NCBI RefSeq assembly: GCF_003688935.1
Contig: NZ_REGE01000005.1
Location: 81,867-105,866, forward strand
Direction: 5' to 3'
Length of the DNA stretch: 24,000 nucleotides
DNA from: Corynebacterium macginleyi
GTDB lineage: Bacteria; Actinomycetota; Actinomycetes; Mycobacteriales; Mycobacteriaceae
Of this stretch, positions 3,134-23,271 are shown piece by piece (position 1 is the first letter of the stretch; each line of letters begins with the position of its first letter). The notes beneath the pieces are model-generated. The model saw only the letters and a list, made by a program, of their open reading frames with translations. It was not told the DNA's origin and searched no databases. The translations under genes and the position numbers were made by a program.

Positions 3134-4174
3134 ATGACCTCTCACGTCGATGAATTTTCTGCCAGCGCTATCGATGCCATCGTTACTGCCGCCCAATACG
3201 GGTGGTCCCCAGACGATTTACGCCACATTCTTGGTTCTTATTCCTATCCCCTCATCTACCGCGCCAGCCCTCACGTACCTGCCCGCATTACCTCACCTGC
3301 ACTCCGCAAAGCATGGTTGCAATTAGAAGCGCCGCAAGAAAATTTCGTTCCCCGCGATAAAATGCGCGCCATCATAAAAGAGCTGGTACATCTGCCGCGG
3401 TTGCGCGATACCGAGCTTTTAGCAGGCGGCGAGCTAAGCCAGGCCGAAAACTCTAGCGACCAGCAGGATAAACTCCGCCGCAAGGTCTTGGGGCTGCTGC
3501 GCAAAGCAGAATCCACGTCCTTTGTAGAAGAGGCAGAGGTACTCATTTCCAAGGCGCAATCGCTACAGCAAAAATACCGCATCGAAGATCTTTTAACCGT
3601 TGACCAGCCCCGCCTTATTTCCCACCGAGTGCACGTGCACCCGCCGTATATCAAGCACCAGGTCACCTTGTTGGGCACCATCGCCAATGCCAATGGCTGC
3701 ACCAGCCTACTCATCCACGAAAAGGGTCTGGCCTGCATCATCGGCGCACCCGAAGACGCTGCGCACTGCGCCGACTTGTTCTCCTCCTTGAACCGCCAAT
3801 GCGATTGGTACATGCGCAACAGTGAAGGTGCCGAATTTGCGCGCGTAACACAGACTACCGCTGCCTATCGACGCAGCTTCCGGCTTTCCTATGCCGCCCG
3901 TATCGGGGAACTGCTGCAGCTGGCCAATGAAGACGGTATTGAAGAAAAACTCGATGAATCCCCTTACTGCAGCCACCACGCAGAACTCATCGCCACCCAA
4001 ACGCTGCCCGCACTCCAAGCGCGCACCGATCATGCCGAGGAAACCCGAAACCGCCTATTTCCCAATCTGAGTACTTCTACGCTATCCATGAATAGCTTGC
4101 ATGGCATCACTGACGGTATCACGGCCGCGGATAAGTCTCACTTAGGCGGGTCTGCCATGGGCATCGATTCTTGA
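3134..4174 (+). CDS. Conserved actinobacterial hypothetical protein with a DUF2786-like helix
   Basis: 346-aa ORF with an AAGGAAG SD about 9 nt upstream of the ATG. The segment KLRRKVLGLLRKAESTSFVEEAEVLISKAQSLQQKY matches the DUF2786 pattern (K..LLakAEsT.f.eEAea...KAqeL) as I remember it. Confidence 0.65.
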   Translation: MTSHVDEFSASAIDAIVTAAQYGWSPDDLRHILGSYSYPLIYRASPHVPARITSPALRKAWLQLEAPQENFVPRDKMRAIIKELVHLPRLRDTELLAGGELSQAENSSDQQDKLRRKVLGLLRKAESTSFVEEAEVLISKAQSLQQKYRIEDLLTVDQPRLISHRVHVHPPYIKHQVTLLGTIANANGCTSLLIHEKGLACIIGAPEDAAHCADLFSSLNRQCDWYMRNSEGAEFARVTQTTAAYRRSFRLSYAARIGELLQLANEDGIEEKLDESPYCSHHAELIATQTLPALQARTDHAEETRNRLFPNLSTSTLSMNSLHGITDGITAADKSHLGGSAMGIDS

Positions 4175-4348: not shown

Positions 4349-6070
4349 ATGTCAACACAGACTTTTCTGGAAGTAGAAGCGAAATTCGCCGTAGCGGAAT
4401 CGACTCAACTGCCTGAACTTACTCGACTCGAATCCGTTGACCATATTGCAGAAACACGCCATCACGCTCTATCTGCTATTTATTACGACACGGAAGATTT
4501 GCGCCTGACACACGCCAAAATCACCTTGCGCCGCCGCACCGGCGGCAATGACGATGGCTGGCACATCAAGATCCCAAGCGAGAGTGGACGCACCGAGATC
4601 CACGCCGAACTGGGAGAACCGGTAGACGGCAAATACGAAGTACCCCAAGAACTTGTGCAGCAGGTGCGCTCTGTCGTTCGCCACAACGAGTTAAACCCCA
4701 TCGCGCAGGTGGATAATAACCGCACCGAGATACTGCTTGCGGACGAGCAGAACAATCCGGTCGCAGAATTCTGCGATGACCACGTCACCGCCTTTTCTTT
4801 TCTGCCCGGCGGGCAGCAGCAATCCTGGCGCGAATGGGAAATGGAACTCGCCGGTGAGCTTCCAGGTACGGAAGAAGGAAGCCACTTTATACGCCGCGCC
4901 ACATCCCTTCTCATCGGCGCTGGGGCTCGCGTTTCTTCGTCCCCGTCTAAGCTAACGACGGCCTTGGGCGATTCTTACAGCAATGCTCCCCTTCCGCCTG
5001 CGCTAATCACCCCAGATGTTGAGAAGGATTCCCCAGCAGCCGCGGTGATTGCAGCGCTGCAGGCCAACCGCGACAAGCTCATCGATTACGATCCGCGCGT
5101 TCGCCGCGATGAATGGGACTCGGTGCACCAAATGCGCGTGGCCACCCGTGAGCTGCGCAGCCACCTACAGACTTTTCACGGCATTGTCGTCGGCCCGCAG
5201 ATCGAGAAAATCGAAGCCGATCTCAAGGAGCTCGCCAACATTTTGGGCGTTGCCCGCGATGCGGAGGTCGTCGAAGAGCGCTGGCTAGAGCTCTTGGAAT
5301 CCGAGGATTCCGATACCTTGGATGCCGCCACTCGCGAGCACATCTCCCGCGATATGGCAACCGCCTACCGGCGGGCACACCGGAGGATTATCGCCGCACT
5401 AAATTCTGAGGAATACCTCGAATTACTCGAGTCCCTTGACCGCCTGCTGGCGAATCCCCCTACTGCCGGTTCCCAGTCCGCAGAAGATACCGACGGTACT
5501 GATGATTGCGTTGCCGTTGACCCGACCGGGGCTGCAGTCGATAATCCAGCCGAAGATGGCGCGGACACGAACGCGGCAGAGGAGGAATCTAACGCTGAAA
5601 CGGGCGATACGCAGACCGAGGACGTCGATGTCGTCATGGCGCGCCACCTAGAAAAGGCCTACAATAAGCTGGTCAAGCGGCATAAGAAGGCCGTGGACAA
5701 CTGGAATAACGCGGAGCTGTCGCTACAGGAGCGCGAGAATTACTTCCACGATATGCGCAAGGCTGCGAAGAAATTGCGTTACGCAGCAGAGGCAGCCGGT
5801 TCAGCAACGAAACTAAAGACCAAGCGCCTGTATAAGAGCTGCAAAAAGATGCAATCGGTTTTGGGGGATTTTCAAGACTCGGTGACCTCGCGGGATAAAT
5901 TGCTAGAACTGGCCCGCAATGCTCACCGCCGCGGGGAAGATACCTTCGGCTACGGCCTGCTGTACCAGCGCGAACGCGCTATCAGCCTGGCTGCCTTAGA
6001 GGATTACACTGAATCCTTCAAAGACATCGAGGCCGCGTTTAAACCGCTGCGCAAAAAGCTGAAGAAATAG
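4349..6070 (+). CDS. CYTH (triphosphate tunnel metalloenzyme) plus CHAD domain protein (573 aa)
   Basis: The N-terminus carries the ExExK signature (FLEVEAKFAV) and YYDTEDLRL...ITLRRRTGGNDDGWHIKIP. The C-terminal half has CHAD-type helices (VHQMRVATRELRSHLQTF, FHDMRKAAKKLRYAAE). Confidence 0.88.
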   Translation: MSTQTFLEVEAKFAVAESTQLPELTRLESVDHIAETRHHALSAIYYDTEDLRLTHAKITLRRRTGGNDDGWHIKIPSESGRTEIHAELGEPVDGKYEVPQELVQQVRSVVRHNELNPIAQVDNNRTEILLADEQNNPVAEFCDDHVTAFSFLPGGQQQSWREWEMELAGELPGTEEGSHFIRRATSLLIGAGARVSSSPSKLTTALGDSYSNAPLPPALITPDVEKDSPAAAVIAALQANRDKLIDYDPRVRRDEWDSVHQMRVATRELRSHLQTFHGIVVGPQIEKIEADLKELANILGVARDAEVVEERWLELLESEDSDTLDAATREHISRDMATAYRRAHRRIIAALNSEEYLELLESLDRLLANPPTAGSQSAEDTDGTDDCVAVDPTGAAVDNPAEDGADTNAAEEESNAETGDTQTEDVDVVMARHLEKAYNKLVKRHKKAVDNWNNAELSLQERENYFHDMRKAAKKLRYAAEAAGSATKLKTKRLYKSCKKMQSVLGDFQDSVTSRDKLLELARNAHRRGEDTFGYGLLYQRERAISLAALEDYTESFKDIEAAFKPLRKKLKK

Positions 6071-7861: not shown

Positions 7862-8322
7862 GCGAATGAGCCGACCTATAAGCCGGATTCTGTCTAACCG
7901 CGGCACCCCAGCCAGTGAGGATACCGCGCGGCGATCATCCATCTAGACCAACCGTTGCCAGTTGGTTCCAGCAGCTACCTTCAGGCTCGAGCGAGCAGCC
8001 TTAAAACGCCTGATCGGGCCCTGCAACGTGGCAGGGCCGTGATGCCTTGCTCCCGGTGGGGTTTACCCAGCCACCGCCATCACTGACGATGCTGGTGCGC
8101 TCTTAACGCACCGTTTCACCCTTACCTTGTGTCCCCAACTTGGGCCGAAACGCAAGTGGAGGCACAAGGCGGTCTACTTTCTGTTGCACTTGCCCGCGGG
8201 TCACCCCGGGTTGCCGTTAGCAACCACCGTGCTCTGTGGAGTCCGGACTTTCCTCGGCGCCCACGTAGCAGCATTCATGCTGCCCGTTTGCGGCGACGCG
8301 ATCGCCCGGCCGGCTCATTCGC
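7862..8322 (-). ncRNA. rnpB: RNase P RNA, bacterial type A
   Basis: The minus strand reads GCGAAUGAGCCGGCC...GAGGAAAGUCCGGACUCCACAGAGCA...GGUAAGGGUGAAACGGUGCGUUAAGAGCGCACC...ACAGAAUCCGGCUUAUAGGUCGGCUCAUUCGC. The universally conserved P4/CR-I (GAGGAAAGUCCGG), CR-IV/V (ACAGAA.CCGGCUUA) and GGUAAGGGUGAAA.GGUGCGGUAAGAGCGCACC blocks are all present. The 5' and 3' ends pair over about 15 bp to form P1. Confidence 0.95.
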
Positions 8323-8329
8323 GCTACCT

Positions 8330-8335
8330 AGTCTA
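8330..8335 (-). promoter_or_regulatory. Candidate -10 box TAGACT for rnpB, overlapping the stop codon of the upstream gene
   Basis: The minus strand reads ...CTACGCTAGACTaggtagcG, so TAGACT ends 7 nt before the first P1 nucleotide (8322). Its TAG is the stop codon of the RNase H/phosphatase CDS. The -35 is poor. Confidence 0.35.
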
Positions 8336-9496
8336 GCGTAGCCCTTCCAGGTGTCCCACATCGTTGAATCCATGCACCATAGAACCACCGTCCCAGAACT
8401 CGACCTCTGAGAGCGCAGCCAGATCCAAAAACAGGTGGTGGAAGGTGGCCGGACCAGCATTCAGAGCCTGGCAAAGGAAGGATTTGATGGGGTTGACATG
8501 GCTGACAATCAGTACCGTCTTGCCGCTATAGCGCCACTGCAATTCCTTGCGGGCAGCACGCACGCGACGATTGACGGCCTGCAGCGATTCCCCGCCGGGA
8601 CATGGTGCGGCGGCATCGTGCAACCACTGCTCGTGGATCTCTGGGTCGCTCTGGCGTGCTTCGGCCGCAGTCTTTCCTTCCCACTCGCCAAAGTCCACTT
8701 CACGAAGGTTTTCTTCGGTAACGACGTCGATATCGCGACCATGTGCAACGGCGGCCGCCATATCCTGGCAGCGTTGTAACGGCGAGCACACGATGGCGTC
8801 AATAGTGGTACCGACAAGCGCCTGTGCCGCGGCGAGCGTCTGCTTTTTGCCTAGTTCAGTAAGACCTGGATTGGTGAGCCCAGAATATTGCTTGGCTGCA
8901 GACATCTCGGTCTGCCCATGTCGCAGCAGAATGAATCGCGTTGTATCGCCGCGATCGCCCAGCCAGTCGGCAGGGTGTGGCGCGGTGGTATCCCACTCCT
9001 GCTCGCCCTCGACCGGCATAGGCGCGGCAGGCATGGACTCGGCAGGCTCATCGGTATCGCTCTTAACGATGCCCACCGTGTGGCCTGCCGCGGCCGCGTC
9101 CATAGCATCGTTGGATAGCGCGTCCGCCACCTTATTTTTCGCGCGCGGCACCCACTCGAGACTGAAAGAAGAAAATCCATCGATATGCGTGCGCGCCTGC
9201 AGGGCCAACTTTTGCATATCGGGGTGTTTAATTTTCCAACGCCCGTTAATCTGCTCCACAACGAGCTTGGAATCCATATAGAATTCCACCTCGCTGGCAC
9301 CGAGCTCAGAGGCGGCCTCGAGCCCACGCAATAAGCCGTGGTACTCGGCCACATTATTAGTGGCTTTGGTTCCTACCACATAGACAATTTCGCGCAGGAT
9401 AGTTGTGCCATCTGCGTCATAAAGGACGGTGCCTGCCCCGGCTACTCCCGGGTTGCCGCGCGAGCCACCATCGGCATAGATGATGACCTTCATCAT
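8333..9496 (-). CDS. Bifunctional RNase HI / histidine-phosphatase (CobC-like acid phosphatase) protein, Rv2228c-type
   Basis: The N-terminal domain is RNase HI: MMKVIIYADGGSRGNPG, NNVAEY, MDSKLVV, NKVADALSN. The C-terminal domain is a phosphoglycerate-mutase-family phosphatase: RFILLRHGQT...LIVSHVNPIK. I place the start at the ATG at 9496, which forms an ATGA overlap with the upstream stop. The track ORF start at 9532 would overlap the upstream gene by 40 nt. Confidence 0.9.
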   Translation of the reverse strand: MMKVIIYADGGSRGNPGVAGAGTVLYDADGTTILREIVYVVGTKATNNVAEYHGLLRGLEAASELGASEVEFYMDSKLVVEQINGRWKIKHPDMQKLALQARTHIDGFSSFSLEWVPRAKNKVADALSNDAMDAAAAGHTVGIVKSDTDEPAESMPAAPMPVEGEQEWDTTAPHPADWLGDRGDTTRFILLRHGQTEMSAAKQYSGLTNPGLTELGKKQTLAAAQALVGTTIDAIVCSPLQRCQDMAAAVAHGRDIDVVTEENLREVDFGEWEGKTAAEARQSDPEIHEQWLHDAAAPCPGGESLQAVNRRVRAARKELQWRYSGKTVLIVSHVNPIKSFLCQALNAGPATFHHLFLDLAALSEVEFWDGGSMVHGFNDVGHLEGLR

Positions 9497-10209
9497 GCGA
9501 GGCGTACCAGGTAGGAACCACAGTCGCTGCACTGCGGTAACTCATCAGCAGGCGCATTGCGCACGGCGCTTTTATCGACGGGTGGTAATACAATGAAACA
9601 GCCACCACAAGCCCGGTTGCCCTTGAACTGCGCGGCGCCGACGCCGTTTTCTTGCCGCTGCGCGTCGTATTCCGCAAGGGCATCGGAGGGCAGTTGTTCG
9701 CGCAAATCCGCGATACGCACGGCGGGATCGGGCTGGTTATCCGCGGCCTCTTGCGCGGCTTCCGCGGCGCGGCGCAGCATTTCTAGCTTGCGCTCGGACT
9801 CCGACACGCGCGCGCCGTGCACATCCAGGTTGGACCGTAGCGCATGGATCTCATTGTGTGCTTCTTGCAGCTCACTCATCAAATCCGCGATGCGGGACTT
9901 GGTGGCGTAAAGATCGTGTTCAATATCCTTGCGCTTCTTAGCATTCAATTCAGCGCCGAGCTGGCCCTTGTCATCGCGTTCGCGCCTGCGCAGCTTGCGT
10001 TCATCGGCCTGGATGCGCAGGATTTCATTTTCCATATCATCGACAGCCATTTGCGCGGAACCGGAGGCATCGAGCAAGCGCTTATGTTCTTGTTGCGCCT
10101 TGTCGTATTCGATCTTTTCCGCCAGCTCTTTATTCCCGCCAATGCCTTGCGAGCGTTCCAAGTTGGCCAATTCCAGCAGGACCGGTTGTAGTTCTGGCGA
10201 CAATTTCAC
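9493..10209 (-). CDS. Coiled-coil protein with a C-terminal C4 zinc ribbon (DUF164 / HP0958-like, Rv2229c-type)
   Basis: About 190 aa of charged heptad-like sequence precede CGGC-N22-CSDC. The GTG start directly follows the Nif3 TAA stop, with an AAAGGAG SD 6 nt upstream inside the Nif3 3' end. Confidence 0.85.
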   Translation of the reverse strand: MKLSPELQPVLLELANLERSQGIGGNKELAEKIEYDKAQQEHKRLLDASGSAQMAVDDMENEILRIQADERKLRRRERDDKGQLGAELNAKKRKDIEHDLYATKSRIADLMSELQEAHNEIHALRSNLDVHGARVSESERKLEMLRRAAEAAQEAADNQPDPAVRIADLREQLPSDALAEYDAQRQENGVGAAQFKGNRACGGCFIVLPPVDKSAVRNAPADELPQCSDCGSYLVRLA

Positions 10210-14439: not shown

Positions 14440-14515
14440 TGGTGCGGCCTGAGGGGATCGAACCCCCGACCTATTGGGTGTAAACCAATTGCTCTTCCAG
14501 CTGAGCTAAAGCCGC
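14440..14515 (-). tRNA. tRNA-Val (anticodon UAC), CCA encoded
   Basis: The minus strand reads GCGGCTTTAGCTCAGCTGGAAGAGCAATTGGTTTACACCCAATAGGTCGGGGGTTCGATCCCCTCAGGCCGCACCA. It folds as a cloverleaf: 7-bp acceptor stem, GCTC/GAGC D stem, ATTGG/CCAAT anticodon stem with loop TTTACAC, and a GGGGG/CCCTC T stem with a TTCGATC loop. Confidence 0.95.
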
Positions 14516-19413: not shown

Positions 19414-19827
19414 TTAGCTAAAGCACACGGTGGCACTAAAACCATAGCGCTGGGCAAGGTAAGATACCGCGCTATCCAACGCCGCAAGTTCCATCTCAGT
19501 TCCAGTAAGCACCTGACGACAGCCAATGCCAACGTTTTTCGCCCCGATGCCCGCGGCTGCACCGTAGACGAGCGCCTCCATAGAGATCTCGTCGCGGTAC
19601 CACCGAGTGCACCACAGAGCGGTCAGCAGATCATCTCCTGGGACGATGAACTCCGATTCGGTGCGAATGCACCGATCCATAGCTCGCTCTACTTCTGGGC
19701 GCAGCGAGCGCGGCATCCCAGAAATTTTCAGCACACCTGTAACAACGACGGCCGCACCGTTGCGGCTGGGCCACGCGTAATTGGAGGCTGACTGATGAGC
19801 CGGGACTGTAGTAACGCAAGTATTCAT
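19414..19827 (-). CDS. Hypothetical protein (137 aa from the ATG; the track ORF starts at a TTG at 19848)
   Basis: The ATG at 19827 has a GGGAGA SD 8 nt upstream. Composition resembles the neighbouring genes. I cannot assign a motif with confidence. Confidence 0.5.
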   Translation of the reverse strand: MNTCVTTVPAHQSASNYAWPSRNGAAVVVTGVLKISGMPRSLRPEVERAMDRCIRTESEFIVPGDDLLTALWCTRWYRDEISMEALVYGAAAGIGAKNVGIGCRQVLTGTEMELAALDSAVSYLAQRYGFSATVCFS

Positions 19828-20353
19828 AGCCGATTTCTCCCTCGACAAACCAGCACTGCGGACCTACACGCGTGGTGTGCGCCGCAATGCAAGACGAGCT
19901 TCGTCTTCCCCTACGAACTGTCTATTGCGTCTGCGCACAATTTTCCCGAGTCACACAACCCTCTTCAACCCTCAACTTTCACTTCAACCCCCAAGTCCTC
20001 AACCTGAACTCGAAGTCTAAACTGTGGCTAAAGTTGTTGAAGGAATTAAAGTTACAAAAGTGAAATTTGAGAGATGTACCCTGAATCTGTTCGTCCCGAA
20101 GCAACTTTTTAGCAAGAGCCACCCACAAGGCGGATACCAGCAGAAACACTTACTCAATAGTGCTCATCCCCTGACACCTCGGCCGAAAACTACCCCACTT
20201 CCCATAGAAGCAAAGCTCTTCATGAGTCACTATTGGTAAACCCATAGCGGGGGTAGCGGGGCACCGCGCCCAACCTCGTCCCCTGCTTTAAAAAAGACGC
20301 ACAGCACCATCGGCGGAGAGATCGATATACATTTATTTTGTTTAAGAAATAGA

Positions 20354-20383
20354 TTGACACGATCCTCACACGCCGCCTATACT
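20354..20383 (+). promoter_or_regulatory. Near-consensus sigma-A promoter: TTGACA, 18-nt spacer, TATACT, with an AT-rich upstream element
   Basis: TTGACA lies at 20354-20359 and TATACT at 20378-20383. It is preceded by ATATACATTTATTTTGTTTAAGAAATAGA. The predicted +1 is near 20390. Confidence 0.65.
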
Positions 20384-20438
20384 GTGATGAATTCAAACAA
20401 TCCGGTTTGAATTCCCTCCCTACTCAAAGGACTTTCCT

Positions 20439-20546
20439 ATGTTTGACCTTTCTTCTGCTTTCGGATTCCAGGTTCTCTCCCTCGTTGACGGCATCTTCAC
20501 CCAGTTCGCCATGTTCATCGAAGGCCTTGGTCTGCCGGTATTCTAA
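20439..20546 (+). CDS. Unannotated small ORF, 35 aa: MFDLSSAFGFQVLSLVDGIFTQFAMFIEGLGLPVF (acidic, leaderless, amphipathic; PorA/PorH-like candidate)
   Basis: ATG at 20439 with an AAAGGA SD 7 nt upstream and a TAA stop at 20544-20546. It has a dedicated promoter 56 nt upstream and a strong terminator 14 nt downstream. It is too short to appear in the >=60-aa ORF track. Confidence 0.6.
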   Translation: MFDLSSAFGFQVLSLVDGIFTQFAMFIEGLGLPVF

Positions 20547-20559
20547 AAAGAGCAGCTTT

Positions 20560-20600
20560 AAGCTCCCCACTCCACTGGAATGGGGAGCTTTTCCCGTTTT
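20560..20600 (+). terminator. Rho-independent terminator of the small ORF
   Basis: A 10-bp perfect stem, AAGCTCCCCA (20560-20569) with TGGGGAGCTT (20581-20590), has an 11-nt loop and is followed by TTCCCGTTTT. It lies between convergent genes. Confidence 0.8.
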
Positions 20601-20629
20601 CCTATCAAGGAAAATCTACGATGGAGTAC

Positions 20630-21448
20630 TTACAGCGCCTGCCAGATCTTCGTATTGGTTTCATTCCACAGCGGCTTTGTCCAGTCACCAAATTCTCGGT
20701 CAGTTAATGCCACCATGGCGTAGTCTCCGGCCAACCAGAGAAAGGTTCCGGACATGCCGAAGTGGCCGGTGGCATCGGTAGGCAAGGCTCCCATCCAGTG
20801 GTCTTTTTCACCGCGAATTTCAAATCCAAGCCCCCAGGTGCAATCCTTAAAGCTTCCGTAGCCGGGCACGATTCCGCGCAAACCAGCAAAATGAACACGG
20901 CGCATATCGGCCACAGTGCTGGGGTGCAGGATCTGCGGGTTTTGGACCTCGGCCGCAAATGCCGCGAGATCCTGCGCGGTAGAGACCAAGCCGTGCCCAG
21001 CCGAACCCTCTAAACGGGTGGAGGACATTCCCAGCGGCTCGCACACACCTTCACGGAGGTACTCCGCAAACTCGATGTCAGTGGCATCTTCAACGATATC
21101 TGCTGCCCACTCATATCCGGCGGAAGAATAAATGCGTCGCTCGCCTACAGGCTTTTGCTGGGCGCGAGAATCGAATTTTACTCCCGCAGCATGAGCTAGC
21201 AGGTGTTCGAGTGTGGAGCCTTCCGGACCAGCAGCCTGGTGCAAATCCACCGCGCCTTCTTCCACGGCCAACAGCACTGCGTAAGCCGACACCAGCTTGG
21301 TAACGGAAGCGACCGGAAATTGGTGCGACGTATCGCCTACCGTGTCTATAACCTCGCCACAGTGGATCAACGCTCCGGCCACAGTATCTACGGGCCATTG
21401 ACTTATCTGCTGCAATTCGCTCATAGCTTTCAGTCTACTGTTCATCAT
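20630..21448 (-). CDS. Serine hydrolase of the beta-lactamase / penicillin-binding (class C-like) family
   Basis: S-x-x-K motif (VASVTK), a Tyr motif (IYSSAGYEW) and H-x-G (GHFGMSGTF). 272 aa with no obvious signal peptide. The start is uncertain (M1, M2 or M9). Confidence 0.85.
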   Translation of the reverse strand: MMNSRLKAMSELQQISQWPVDTVAGALIHCGEVIDTVGDTSHQFPVASVTKLVSAYAVLLAVEEGAVDLHQAAGPEGSTLEHLLAHAAGVKFDSRAQQKPVGERRIYSSAGYEWAADIVEDATDIEFAEYLREGVCEPLGMSSTRLEGSAGHGLVSTAQDLAAFAAEVQNPQILHPSTVADMRRVHFAGLRGIVPGYGSFKDCTWGLGFEIRGEKDHWMGALPTDATGHFGMSGTFLWLAGDYAMVALTDREFGDWTKPLWNETNTKIWQAL

Positions 21449-21564: not shown

Positions 21565-23271
21565 ATGAATATGACTAGCATGAATCACAGCGCCCAAACA
21601 GAGATGTCTAATGTCAACCGCCGCAAATTCCTCAAAACTAGCGGCACGGTCGGCGCCGCATTAGCGTTCACCACCACTGCGAGCACAACGCAGGCCACCA
21701 CTGCTCATGCACAAAGCAGCCTATCTTCACGCCCAGAACCACAGATGATAGAGCCCGCGCCCGGTGAACATCCCTTCCTGCACGGAGTAGCGTCGGGTGA
21801 TCCTATTCCAGATTCCGTTGTTCTGTGGACTCGTGTGACGCCAGATCTGGATGCGATGCCTGGCTCTGGTGCGGGTGCGCCCACCACAGTGGTATGGGAG
21901 ATTGCGCGGGATGAGGAGTTTAGGGACATCATCAAGCGCGGCGAAGTAACCACCGATCCTGCACAGGACCACACGGTCCACGTGGATCCTCACGGCCTTG
22001 AACCAGAAACCGTGTATTACTTCCGCTTTCATGCCCTAGATAGGATCTCCCCCGTGGGCCGCACCAAAACTGCACCAGCGGTGACTGCATCCCCAAAGGA
22101 GCTAACCTTCGGTGTAGCCAGCTGTGCCAACTGGGAGTCCGGCTTCTTTCAAGCCTACGGCGATATCGCACAGCGCGGACGGTCAGGTCAACTAGATTAT
22201 TTGGTCTTTCTGGGAGACTATATCTACGAATACCCACAACGCGAATACGCCGGTTTTGGTCCAGTGCGTCTACACCACCCCGCGCACGAGATTACGACTC
22301 TGGAAGATTATCGCACGCGCCTAGGTCGCTACCGTACCGATGAAAATCTCCAAGCGGCGCATGCTGCCCTGCCGTGGATCGCAGTATGGGACGACCACGA
22401 AACCGCAAATGATTCTTGGAGGGAAGGCGCCGAAAACCACACGGAGGGAGAAGAAGGCACCTGGATCGATCGCCGAAACGCCGCGATGCAAGCCTACTTT
22501 GAATGGATGCCGGTGCGTGCAAGCAACCCATCCAATAACGGCCATCTCTACCGGAGTTTGACCTTTGGGGATCTCGTAGAACTGACCATGATGGATCTGC
22601 GCACTTACCGCGATAAAAAGGTGACCTTCGGCCCTATCAAGATGTCTGCAGATGGGCGAAGTATGCTCGGCTCGGAGCAATACGAGTGGTTGGTCAATAA
22701 GATCGATACCTCTGCCGCCACATGGAATATGCTGGGCAACTCCGTCATGTTCTCGCCTATGAACCTGGCTACCCTGCAGCATAACGACACGCTAGCCCCT
22801 ATATCGTCCTGTCTATCGTCCAATATCACCGGTATTCCGGTCAATGGCGACCAATGGGATGGCTACTCAGCAGAACGCCGGATGCTAATCGATGTTCTTG
22901 CCAAGAGCGAGTCCCACGCCCTCTTTGTTACCGGCGATATCCACTCCGAATGGGCACACAATGTAAGCAAGGATGGGCACACCTTCGGAGCCGAAATGGT
23001 TTGCTCGTCTATCTCTGCCCCCAATATCAACGAACAGCTTCGCCTTCCCGAGGGCAACAGGCTCTCCAAGTTGGCTGAGCGCTACCTTTTGGAGGCAAAC
23101 CCGCATACACGCCACGTGGACCTCGATCACCACGGATATAGCTATGTCACAATCCGTCCGGATTCTGCGGAAATGCACTGGCTGCGCGTCGAAGATCTCC
23201 TCAACCCCTCCGCACCAGTAAACGAAGCCGTCACGCTAACATGGCGTCCGAATGAGGGGTTTAGCTCTTAA
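21565..23271 (+). CDS. phoD: Tat-exported PhoD-family alkaline phosphatase / phosphodiesterase
   Basis: Twin-arginine signal NRRKFLKTSGTVGAALAF...AHA. PhoD metallophosphatase motifs VFLGDYIYE, VWDDHE and FVTGDIHS. The true start may be the ATG at 21604 (MSNVNRRKF). Confidence 0.92.
   Translation: MNMTSMNHSAQTEMSNVNRRKFLKTSGTVGAALAFTTTASTTQATTAHAQSSLSSRPEPQMIEPAPGEHPFLHGVASGDPIPDSVVLWTRVTPDLDAMPGSGAGAPTTVVWEIARDEEFRDIIKRGEVTTDPAQDHTVHVDPHGLEPETVYYFRFHALDRISPVGRTKTAPAVTASPKELTFGVASCANWESGFFQAYGDIAQRGRSGQLDYLVFLGDYIYEYPQREYAGFGPVRLHHPAHEITTLEDYRTRLGRYRTDENLQAAHAALPWIAVWDDHETANDSWREGAENHTEGEEGTWIDRRNAAMQAYFEWMPVRASNPSNNGHLYRSLTFGDLVELTMMDLRTYRDKKVTFGPIKMSADGRSMLGSEQYEWLVNKIDTSAATWNMLGNSVMFSPMNLATLQHNDTLAPISSCLSSNITGIPVNGDQWDGYSAERRMLIDVLAKSESHALFVTGDIHSEWAHNVSKDGHTFGAEMVCSSISAPNINEQLRLPEGNRLSKLAERYLLEANPHTRHVDLDHHGYSYVTIRPDSAEMHWLRVEDLLNPSAPVNEAVTLTWRPNEGFSS

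Follow-up and report, generated by a model that had tools for sequence, protein, structure and literature searches.

A 35-codon micro-gene of Corynebacterium macginleyi with two deep allele classes among related lineages: a candidate leaderless mycomembrane peptide

The expression unit

The 24,000-nucleotide (nt) stretch of Corynebacterium macginleyi DNA analysed here (positions 81,867 to 105,866 of contig NZ_REGE01000005.1; hereafter the window) contains, at 20354-20602 on the forward strand, a complete expression unit composed of a promoter, a Shine-Dalgarno sequence, a 35-codon open reading frame (ORF) and a strong terminator. Judged from these signals, the unit appears to be a monocistronic gene with a transcript of ~210 nt that is translated into a small peptide. 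The AT-rich element, the promoter TTGACA-18-TATACT, AAAGGA, the ATG at 20439, the 35 codons, the TAA and the 10-bp hairpin that a first-pass annotation had proposed were all present. The unit comprises the following elements:

20322..20353 (+): AT-rich upstream block TCGATATACATTTATTTTGT..., candidate UP element, directly 5' of the -35 box
20354..20383 (+): SigA/sigma-70-type promoter TTGACA-18-TATACT, 11/12 consensus positions
20389..20414 (+): perfect palindrome GAATTCAAAC-N6-GTTTGAATTC, a 10-bp inverted repeat with spacer AATCCG, immediately 3' of the -10 box
20426..20431 (+): Shine-Dalgarno sequence AAAGGA, 7 nt 5' of the ATG
20439..20546 (+): 35-codon coding sequence (CDS) of allele type A, ATG to TAA, encoding MFDLSSAFGFQVLSLVDGIFTQFAMFIEGLGLPVF
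20560..20602 (+): intrinsic terminator, 10 + 3 bp GC-rich stem and T-rich tail, hairpin 20560-20590

The promoter was the sole sigma-70 match of at least 11/12 positions on either strand of the window, against a chance expectation of 0.12 in first-order Markov simulations of the window, and its TTGACA and TATACT hexamers are invariant across type A and type B alleles. The AT-rich block is mostly kept in six of six aligned alleles, and the DNA further upstream shows just 51-73% identity between non-sister lineages. From the position of the -10 box, transcription would start near 20390; the previously proposed leader of ~49 nt is consistent with this box, which is also what positions it. The stem of the adjacent palindrome is nearly invariant, being kept in six of six alleles, among which no covariation was seen. 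The palindrome is unique in the window, where 0.53 matches would be expected by chance if up to three mismatches are allowed. 5'-Terminal stem-loops classically stabilise mRNA, and the palindrome may form such a structure; it could equally be an operator for a regulator, because it lies immediately downstream of the -10 box. The AAAGG core of the Shine-Dalgarno sequence is invariant in all alleles, with the ATG 7 nt downstream in type A and type B alike.

The terminator begins 13 nt after the stop codon, where AAGCTCCCCA (20560-20569) pairs with TGGGGAGCTT (20581-20590), adding three inner pairs, and is followed by TTTCCCGTTTTCC. Folding yielded -22.8 kcal/mol (z = -3.7), and none of 200 shuffles was equally stable. 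Of the hairpin with T-tract described earlier, the hairpin is thus a strong fold; a CCCG breaks up the T-tract. All alleles share the same stem, save for a T-to-C substitution in its 3' arm in L021. The terminator is probably bidirectional and common to the convergent beta-lactamase-like gene ending at 20630, as their arrangement suggests. In codon score the peptide CDS is level with aceE, which ranks highest in the window. Taken together, the consensus promoter and its AT-rich block, the potential stem-loop at the 5' end, the good Shine-Dalgarno sequence, the aceE-like codons and the strong terminator point to high constitutive expression.

Genomic setting and distribution

The gene order at the locus is aceE, acpM (PP-binding), nagD (HAD-IIA), a gene for a hypothetical protein of 137 amino acids (aa) (-), the peptide gene, a beta-lactamase-family gene (-), phoD and an OYE-type oxidoreductase gene, which confirms that the gene lies in an acpM-nagD...phoD neighbourhood and not at groEL2-ppk2. 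The same core order, aceE through phoD, surrounds the peptide gene in every carrier lineage compared. The convergent neighbour encodes a 272-aa beta-lactamase-family protein, whose relatives share 90% identity in Corynebacterium sp. LaCa142 and MSK072, ~80% in C. tuberculostearicum, 78% in C. curieae and ~65% in C. phoceense. The flanks consist of housekeeping genes, and no transporter, mycoloyltransferase, regulator or mobile element adjoins the peptide gene. In L020-L022, phoD (cf. window 21565-23271) is missing at the locus, and the OYE-type oxidoreductase gene comes next after the beta-lactamase-like gene.

At least five lineages from the C. tuberculostearicum/accolens group carry the unit, always at one syntenic site (P0001-P0005; L001, L002, L017, L019, L020-L030), and it occurs in many Logan, ENA and JGI assemblies, in which gene callers had called the P0001 ORF (22 contigs). 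The view that the gap is empty in the ORF track consequently stands for NCBI-sourced data, where the peptide has no entry, and not for the Logan, ENA and JGI assemblies; there is likewise no Pfam and no NCBIfam family for it. The homologue search that retrieved P0001 used the 35-aa peptide plus five upstream in-frame codons as the query. Searched exhaustively with phmmer, 1.84 billion representative proteins yielded no sequence other than the peptide, the query being too short to reach distant relatives, and a profile search of a 5.8-billion-protein collection returned just the five A and B variants. A metagenome scan yielded A and B copies only, plus one false match, L018, which was discarded as an AT-rich contig without an ORF. 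No match was obtained in plasmids, phages, viral contigs, PDB sequences, Pfam or NCBIfam, nor by a literature search for the peptide sequence. By these searches and the comparisons below, the peptide gene appears to be unannotated and lineage-restricted and to represent a new sequence family with two deep allele classes.

C. tuberculostearicum, C. curieae and C. phoceense do not carry the gene. Homology to the window ends at 20069 in C. tuberculostearicum and C. curieae, and it resumes within the beta-lactamase-like gene in C. curieae and C. phoceense. In C. tuberculostearicum, the spacer is an unrelated, non-homologous, GC-rich sequence of ~240 nt in which no comparable small ORF was found. 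In C. curieae and C. phoceense, the peptide site is occupied by another ORF of 225-270 aa (...VVYPQP/NP...GLSNGGGMA...), located as follows:

L005, ~4859-5536 (-): replacement ORF
L006, 4858-5670 (-): replacement ORF
L007, 4891-5685 (-): replacement ORF

The presence of a different ORF at the same site points to this intergenic site as a hotspot for gene gain and loss.

Coding evidence

The peptide occurs in two allele classes, type A with 35 aa and type B with 41 aa, which are distributed as follows:

Type A: window (P0001); L001 and L017; L029 (P0002); L020-L022 (P0003)
Type B: MPDMPETYSSSDFGFDLLSAFDGFFTQIAMILEKIVGQSLF in L002 and L019; variants P0004 and P0005

Of the six frames, that of the peptide alone is free of stops throughout the seven alleles; a +1-frame ORF of 124 aa (20407..20781) and an antisense ORF of 48 aa are both interrupted in type B. 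The length difference between the classes results, in the alignment, from in-frame indels of 15 nt and 3 nt, with the ATG retained and the TAA at the same place. At a CDS nucleotide identity of 56-59%, comparison of A with B by the Nei-Gojobori method gave a synonymous divergence (dS) of ~1.0, a non-synonymous divergence (dN) of ~0.35 and a dN/dS ratio (omega) of ~0.33. Fifteen residues are invariant in the five distinct proteins (M1, S5, S6, G9, F10, L13, S14, D17, G18, F20, T21, Q22, A24, G31 and F35). Among them, Ser14 has the codon TCC in type A and AGC in type B; that a Ser persisted across two codon families argues strongly for constraint on the protein. A check of frame conservation and dN/dS had been suggested in the first-pass annotation; with the frame open in seven alleles and an omega of ~0.33 for A versus B, its outcome, together with the indel pattern, bears out the self-contained gene that had been claimed. 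A genuine, selected protein-coding micro-gene is supported by these sequence comparisons.

Among type A alleles, no segment of the region is conserved as well as the CDS, which shows 91-96% identity, as compared with 81-87% (window comparisons) and 84-96% (other lineages) for the neighbouring genes and 55-83% for upstream non-coding DNA. Of ~25 synonymous sites, two differ between the window and L001, as against 9-10 expected from the neighbouring genes (P = 0.0002-0.002), so that type A synonymous sites are 3-4 times more conserved than those of the neighbouring genes. This low synonymous change could reflect high-expression codon bias, a possible cause because the codon score equals that of aceE, or else RNA-level constraint or recent allele exchange.

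RNA-level constraint would also be expected if the functional product were mainly RNA, that is, a small RNA (sRNA) of ~210 nt or a dual-function RNA with an incidental or secondary ORF, and the promoter, the 5' palindrome and the terminator are indeed almost invariant even between A and B. We regard this explanation as quite improbable. At 56-59% CDS identity the reading frame keeps its start and stop codons, the indels are in frame, and both the invariant residues and the amphipathic pattern persist, which an RNA-only function would not have preserved, and the strong Shine-Dalgarno sequence is conserved at optimal spacing. The 5' stem is without covariation, and Rfam gave no credible match in 19800-20800 at E <= 10 and none at gathering thresholds. 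The sRNA alternative of the first-pass annotation had envisaged broken frames in relatives; the frames were found intact and the indels in frame. Separately, an sRNA reading based on untranslated regions (UTRs) being better conserved than the CDS was rejected as an artefact of the A versus B comparison.

Divergence confined to the coding sequence

L001 (type A, LaCa142) and L002 (type B, MSK072) are sister species. Between them, acpM, nagD, the 137-aa gene and the beta-lactamase-like gene are 94-96% identical, with a dS of 0.14-0.25 in acpM, nagD and the beta-lactamase-like gene; the peptide CDS shows 59% identity and a dS of ~1.1. An estimated ~12.8 synonymous differences at 22 sites, tested as 12, gave P = 3.5e-6 to 6e-4 at the rates of the neighbouring genes. 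The -35 and -10 boxes, the palindrome of the 5' UTR, the Shine-Dalgarno sequence and the terminator remain almost identical between the two species, so that the divergent block is essentially the coding sequence. The five differences seen within type B are without exception non-synonymous and fall in the last nine residues, the C-terminal tail. Divergence restricted to the CDS is typical of old alleles maintained or recombined at loci under diversifying selection, and the difference between these sister species hints at such selection.

Composition and predicted structure of the peptide

The type A peptide contains no Lys, Arg or His and has three acidic residues (D3, D17 and E28), resulting in a net charge of -3, an isoelectric point of ~4.05 and a grand average of hydropathy (GRAVY) of 1.25. 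Its calculated average mass is 3845.5 Da (3842.9 Da monoisotopic), to which formylation would add 28 Da. Type B has a net charge of -5, and no signal peptide was found in either type. These analyses confirmed the composition and the lack of a leader reported earlier for the window peptide. Over its whole length the peptide has a helical hydrophobic moment of 0.255 (p = 0.01 versus shuffles; 0.20 for PorA and 0.60 for delta-toxin); the amphipathicity is thus real but moderate.

AF2 predicted one continuous helix in each class, spanning residues 3-29 in type A (predicted local distance difference test, pLDDT, 82.7) and 10-40 in type B (pLDDT 81.5), with a short non-helical tail, GLGLPVF, following the helix in type A. 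On the type A helix, S6, A7, Q11, S14, D17, G18, T21, Q22, A24 and E28 line up as a narrow stripe of polar and small residues. Of the ten A-to-B replacements in the aligned helix core, A7D, Q11D and G29K lie on the polar face, and the other seven are hydrophobic replacements on the hydrophobic face. The moments of A and B point in directions 16 degrees apart, and the type B moment of 0.372 exceeds that of 99.8% of permutations of the replaced residues. In these models the helix keeps its polar stripe between the classes, in line with the single amphipathic helix of the first-pass annotation. The helix, otherwise of Phe, Leu, Ile and Val, carries a conserved Asp and two Gln in its middle, and D17 and Q11/Q22 are retained or more acidic in type B.

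The best 19-residue summed insertion energies on the Hessa scale, with position dependence ignored, are listed below; of the comparator sequences, those of PorA and PorH were validated through their NCBIfam matches:

Type A (window): +6.9 kcal/mol
Type B: +8.2 kcal/mol
PorA: +7.1 kcal/mol
PorH: +9.1 kcal/mol
KdpF, AcrZ, CydX (inner-membrane microproteins): -2.8 to -0.7 kcal/mol
TisB, Fst (type I toxins): +2.0 kcal/mol

By this measure, the hydrophobicity profile appears to match those of PorA and PorH and to be unlike those of inner-membrane microproteins or type I toxins. As a monomer, a helix of this kind would make a poor transmembrane segment of the plasma membrane, and it would make a good stave for an oligomeric bundle with an acidic lumen.

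These values bear on two further explanations. Most characterised bacterial proteins of <50 aa are single-helix membrane proteins, and the peptide, very hydrophobic and helical, might, like KdpF, AcrZ and CydX, be a microprotein of the cytoplasmic membrane, or one otherwise associated with the cell, whose role is to modulate a larger membrane complex and which has no relation to the mycomembrane; KdpF is also without basic residues. We consider this unlikely, given that +6.9 to +8.2 kcal/mol stands against -2.8 to -0.7 for bona fide inner-membrane microproteins, that mid-helix D17 and Q11/Q22 are conserved or more acidic in type B and that a positive-inside signal is missing. Moreover, the gene is monocistronic without a partner gene, and deep allelic divergence between sister species would be unusual for a housekeeping subunit.

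Highly improbable is a type I toxin-like peptide that damages membranes and is checked by an antisense RNA. A small hydrophobic helix, a stand-alone gene and a structured 5' UTR would suit such a toxin, and the convergent gene could give read-through antisense RNA, but no antisense promoter-like site was detected at the peptide gene, the basic residues typical of type I toxins are lacking and TisB and Fst have quite different insertion energies. In addition, the near-consensus promoter, the good Shine-Dalgarno sequence, which is not strongly sequestered in the predicted fold, and the aceE-like codons suggest constitutive expression, not tight repression.

Comparison with known small envelope peptides

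PorA, PorH and ProtX of C. glutamicum share a set of functional-class traits which are also found here: a length below ~60 aa, an initiator Met without presequence, acidity and an amphipathic alpha-helix, the latter predicted for the present peptide. PorA (45 aa) and PorH (57 aa) are, like it, very small, leaderless, acidic amphipathic helices. They are encoded by a two-gene operon and form the hetero-oligomeric major porin of C. glutamicum and relatives, whereas here a single gene without partner is present. PorA is mycoloylated at Ser15 in ...DVLSGSG..., and the present peptide has the invariant Ser14 in ...QVLSLVDG.... O-mycoloylation takes place on Ser among Ser, Gly and Ala, without a strict motif (PMC11066868). 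The invariant SSAFG/SSSDFG segment fits this loose preference, and the invariant S5, S6 and S14 are candidate sites of O-mycoloylation (a Cmt1/MytC class trait).

The closest known analogue appears to be ProtX (Cg2875/Cgp_2875) of C. glutamicum, a hydrophobic, acidic, predicted helical protein of 38 aa without signal sequence, which is unrelated to PorA/PorH and encoded by a stand-alone tiny gene (PMC5310785, PMC9671496). The present peptide resembles it in small size, absence of a leader, hydrophobicity, acidity, predicted helix and stand-alone gene. ProtX is O-mycoloylated, by which it gains about 478-531 Da in C. glutamicum (PMC5310785), is surface-exposed and cell-wall-linked and serves as the adsorption receptor of phage Cog (PMC5310785, PMC9671496, PMC13643282), for which PorA is required after adsorption (PMC9671496). 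For comparison, 30 of the 38 residues of ProtX were rebuilt from published primers, with eight residues missing. A gapless alignment with this partial sequence brought together an F-D near the N-terminus, an LVxxIF core and both C-termini. Local alignment of the 30 residues was not significant versus shuffles (p = 0.106 for the window, 0.054 for L001 and 0.58 for type B), and a database query with the X-padded partial sequence gave no candidate in a collection that apparently lacks ProtX. On sequence grounds, membership in a ProtX family seems unlikely. The loci differ as well, ProtX lying in the cg2875 region and the present gene in the aceE-acpM-nagD...phoD region.

By their published descriptions, PorACj of C. 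jeikeium (40 aa) and PorACur of C. urealyticum are of a similar kind: each is one small peptide whose amphipathic helix bears a polar stripe of heptad-like spacing. Both are homo-oligomeric and come from lipophilic human-skin corynebacteria, which share their host ecology with the carriers described here. Barrel-stave assemblies of 8-10 helices were proposed as their pores (PMC3792995, PMC5944148), and the oligomeric helix-bundle model extends to PorA/PorH (PMC3792995, PMC5944148, PMC13643282). PorACj and PorACur were found via their groEL2-ppk2 position and their channel activity was measured, whereas the present gene lies at another locus.

Beta-type phenol-soluble modulins (PSMs) of staphylococci are leaderless amphipathic helices with formyl-Met and of similar length, some of them net acidic. 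A secreted or surface-released amphipathic peptide that acts outside its producer, be it as a PSM-like surfactant, as a signal or in antagonism and immunity, with the alleles as specificity types (pherotypes), would account for the leaderless, small, helical and amphipathic character; CDS-only divergence in sister species resembles peptide-pheromone and bacteriocin loci, and the changes within type B are exclusively non-synonymous. This explanation, too, seems unlikely on balance. Similarity to PSM-beta1 or delta-toxin was not convincing (p = 0.04-0.73), and compared with beta-type PSMs the peptide has a much lower helical moment, a higher hydrophobicity and no evident dedicated exporter or regulator. 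With a moment of 0.255, far below the 0.60 of delta-toxin, and a GRAVY of 1.25, a soluble surfactant is less likely; the anionic charge is atypical of a membrane-active bacteriocin, and no receptor, transporter, immunity or processing gene adjoins.

Interpretation

By analogy, we tentatively favour, with a probability of roughly 0.4, the reading that the gene encodes a leaderless, lineage-restricted mycomembrane peptide of the PorA/ProtX kind belonging to a new sequence family. Such a peptide would be exported without a signal sequence, as PorA, PorH and ProtX are, and would reside in the mycolic-acid outer membrane (mycomembrane). It would be O-mycoloylated, probably on an invariant Ser, either in the S5-S6 motif at the helix start or at S14, and would probably self-associate with the acidic stripes facing each other. 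The outcome may be a small cation-selective pore, as in PorACj/PorACur, or a surface-exposed, ProtX-like component. The divergence between type A and type B would then reflect diversifying or balancing selection on a surface-exposed molecule, for instance by phages; phages use ProtX and PorA in C. glutamicum, and a phage-targeted surface molecule would explain the allele pattern.

Several observations weigh against this reading. Neither type matched the PorA (NF033925) or PorH (NF033937/NF033938) models at E <= 10, with C. glutamicum PorA and PorH, included as positive controls, reaching 7.2e-24 and 6.6e-10 on their NCBIfam models, and alignment scores versus PorA or PorH were no better than those of shuffled sequences. 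The gene does not lie between groEL2 and ppk2, the position that has defined every PorA/PorH-type gene so far, and neither a mycoloyltransferase gene nor one for any other envelope partner is present in the 24-kb window. With ...GLGLPVF or ...GLGLQVF as its C-terminus and its last 20 residues free of Ser, type A lacks the C-terminal Ser that bears the mycolate in ProtX (S37, PMC5310785) and in PorH (S56); type B has S39 in L002 and P0004 and a Cys in P0005. ProtX belongs to the SigD regulon (PMC11175481), whereas the promoter here is of SigA type, and the GTAAC -35 core of the SigD consensus was not visible in 20250-20440. The insertion-energy comparison counts for less because it ignores position dependence and because, of its comparator sequences, those of PorA and PorH were the ones validated. 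Finally, the family consists of two allele classes with seven distinct sequences, and all statistics derive from 35-41 codons.

On these sequence data, the peptide does not appear to be a member of the PorA or PorH families. The PorA/PorH-type candidacy put forward in the first-pass annotation is thus retained for the physical chemistry, which is alike, and not for family models, sequence similarity or locus; the remark made there that no identity to PorA or PorH was obvious agrees with the model searches and shuffled alignments. PorA/PorH/PorACj-type porin genes sit between groEL2 and ppk2, PorACj and PorACur are undetectable by BLAST with PorA, and PorACj shares just 11-14% conserved residues with PorA/PorH (PMC3792995, PMC5944148). 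Because these porins diverged beyond the reach of BLAST, the failed homology search lowers the chance that the peptide is a PorA, not the chance that it works like one.

An extended version of the mycomembrane reading is doubtful. It holds that the micro-gene was possibly born recently, that its coding segment has been exchanged or kept as two ancient classes between invariant arms, and that it would serve as a strain-specific surface determinant (phage receptor or pore) of abundant human skin and nasal corynebacteria, exported and lipidated through the leaderless-peptide pathway.

Corynebacterial mycomembrane proteins are few and poorly understood, and PorA/PorH-type genes outside C. glutamicum were all found by their position at one locus. 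The export, mycoloylation and assembly of leaderless peptides such as PorA, PorH and ProtX have still to be explained (PMC13643282). If the mycomembrane reading is true, the class would extend beyond the groEL2-ppk2 locus to an unrelated peptide of like physical character encoded elsewhere, and current annotation would be missing such genes, as there is no NCBI-sourced, Pfam or NCBIfam coverage. The C. tuberculostearicum/accolens group dominates human skin and nasal communities, and a highly expressed surface peptide with two allele classes would in that case be a candidate phage receptor and strain-typing marker. The locus also offers a natural experiment: between conserved control elements, one CDS has replaced another with retention of the polar stripe, showing which residues matter.

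Other features of the window

Outside the peptide locus, the window contains an RNase P RNA of class A at 7863-8317 (-) with 279 bits and a tRNA-Val(TAC) at 14440-14515 (-), both of which are ordinary. Genes for an RNase H and histidine-phosphatase fusion at 8333-9532 (-), a CYTH-CHAD protein at 4349-6070 (+) and a DUF2786/DUF7168 protein at 3134-4174 (+) are ordinary actinobacterial genes with no apparent link to the peptide.

The 137-aa hypothetical protein encoded at 19414..19827 (-) belongs to no Pfam or NCBIfam family and is conserved across the species complex. Its proportions of synonymous and non-synonymous differences (pS 0.37 versus pN 0.09) point to purifying selection. On the leader/promoter side of this gene, ~240 nt of non-coding DNA at 19828-20070 showed 73-75% identity to C. 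tuberculostearicum and C. curieae, and a 29-nt core at 19890-19918 showed 93% identity in C. phoceense. A coding signature was found in no frame of this segment, nor did it match Rfam. It contains three GGGTTGAAG-like repeats and the hairpin GAAGACGA-AGC-TCGTCTTG, and may be an undescribed cis-regulatory leader.

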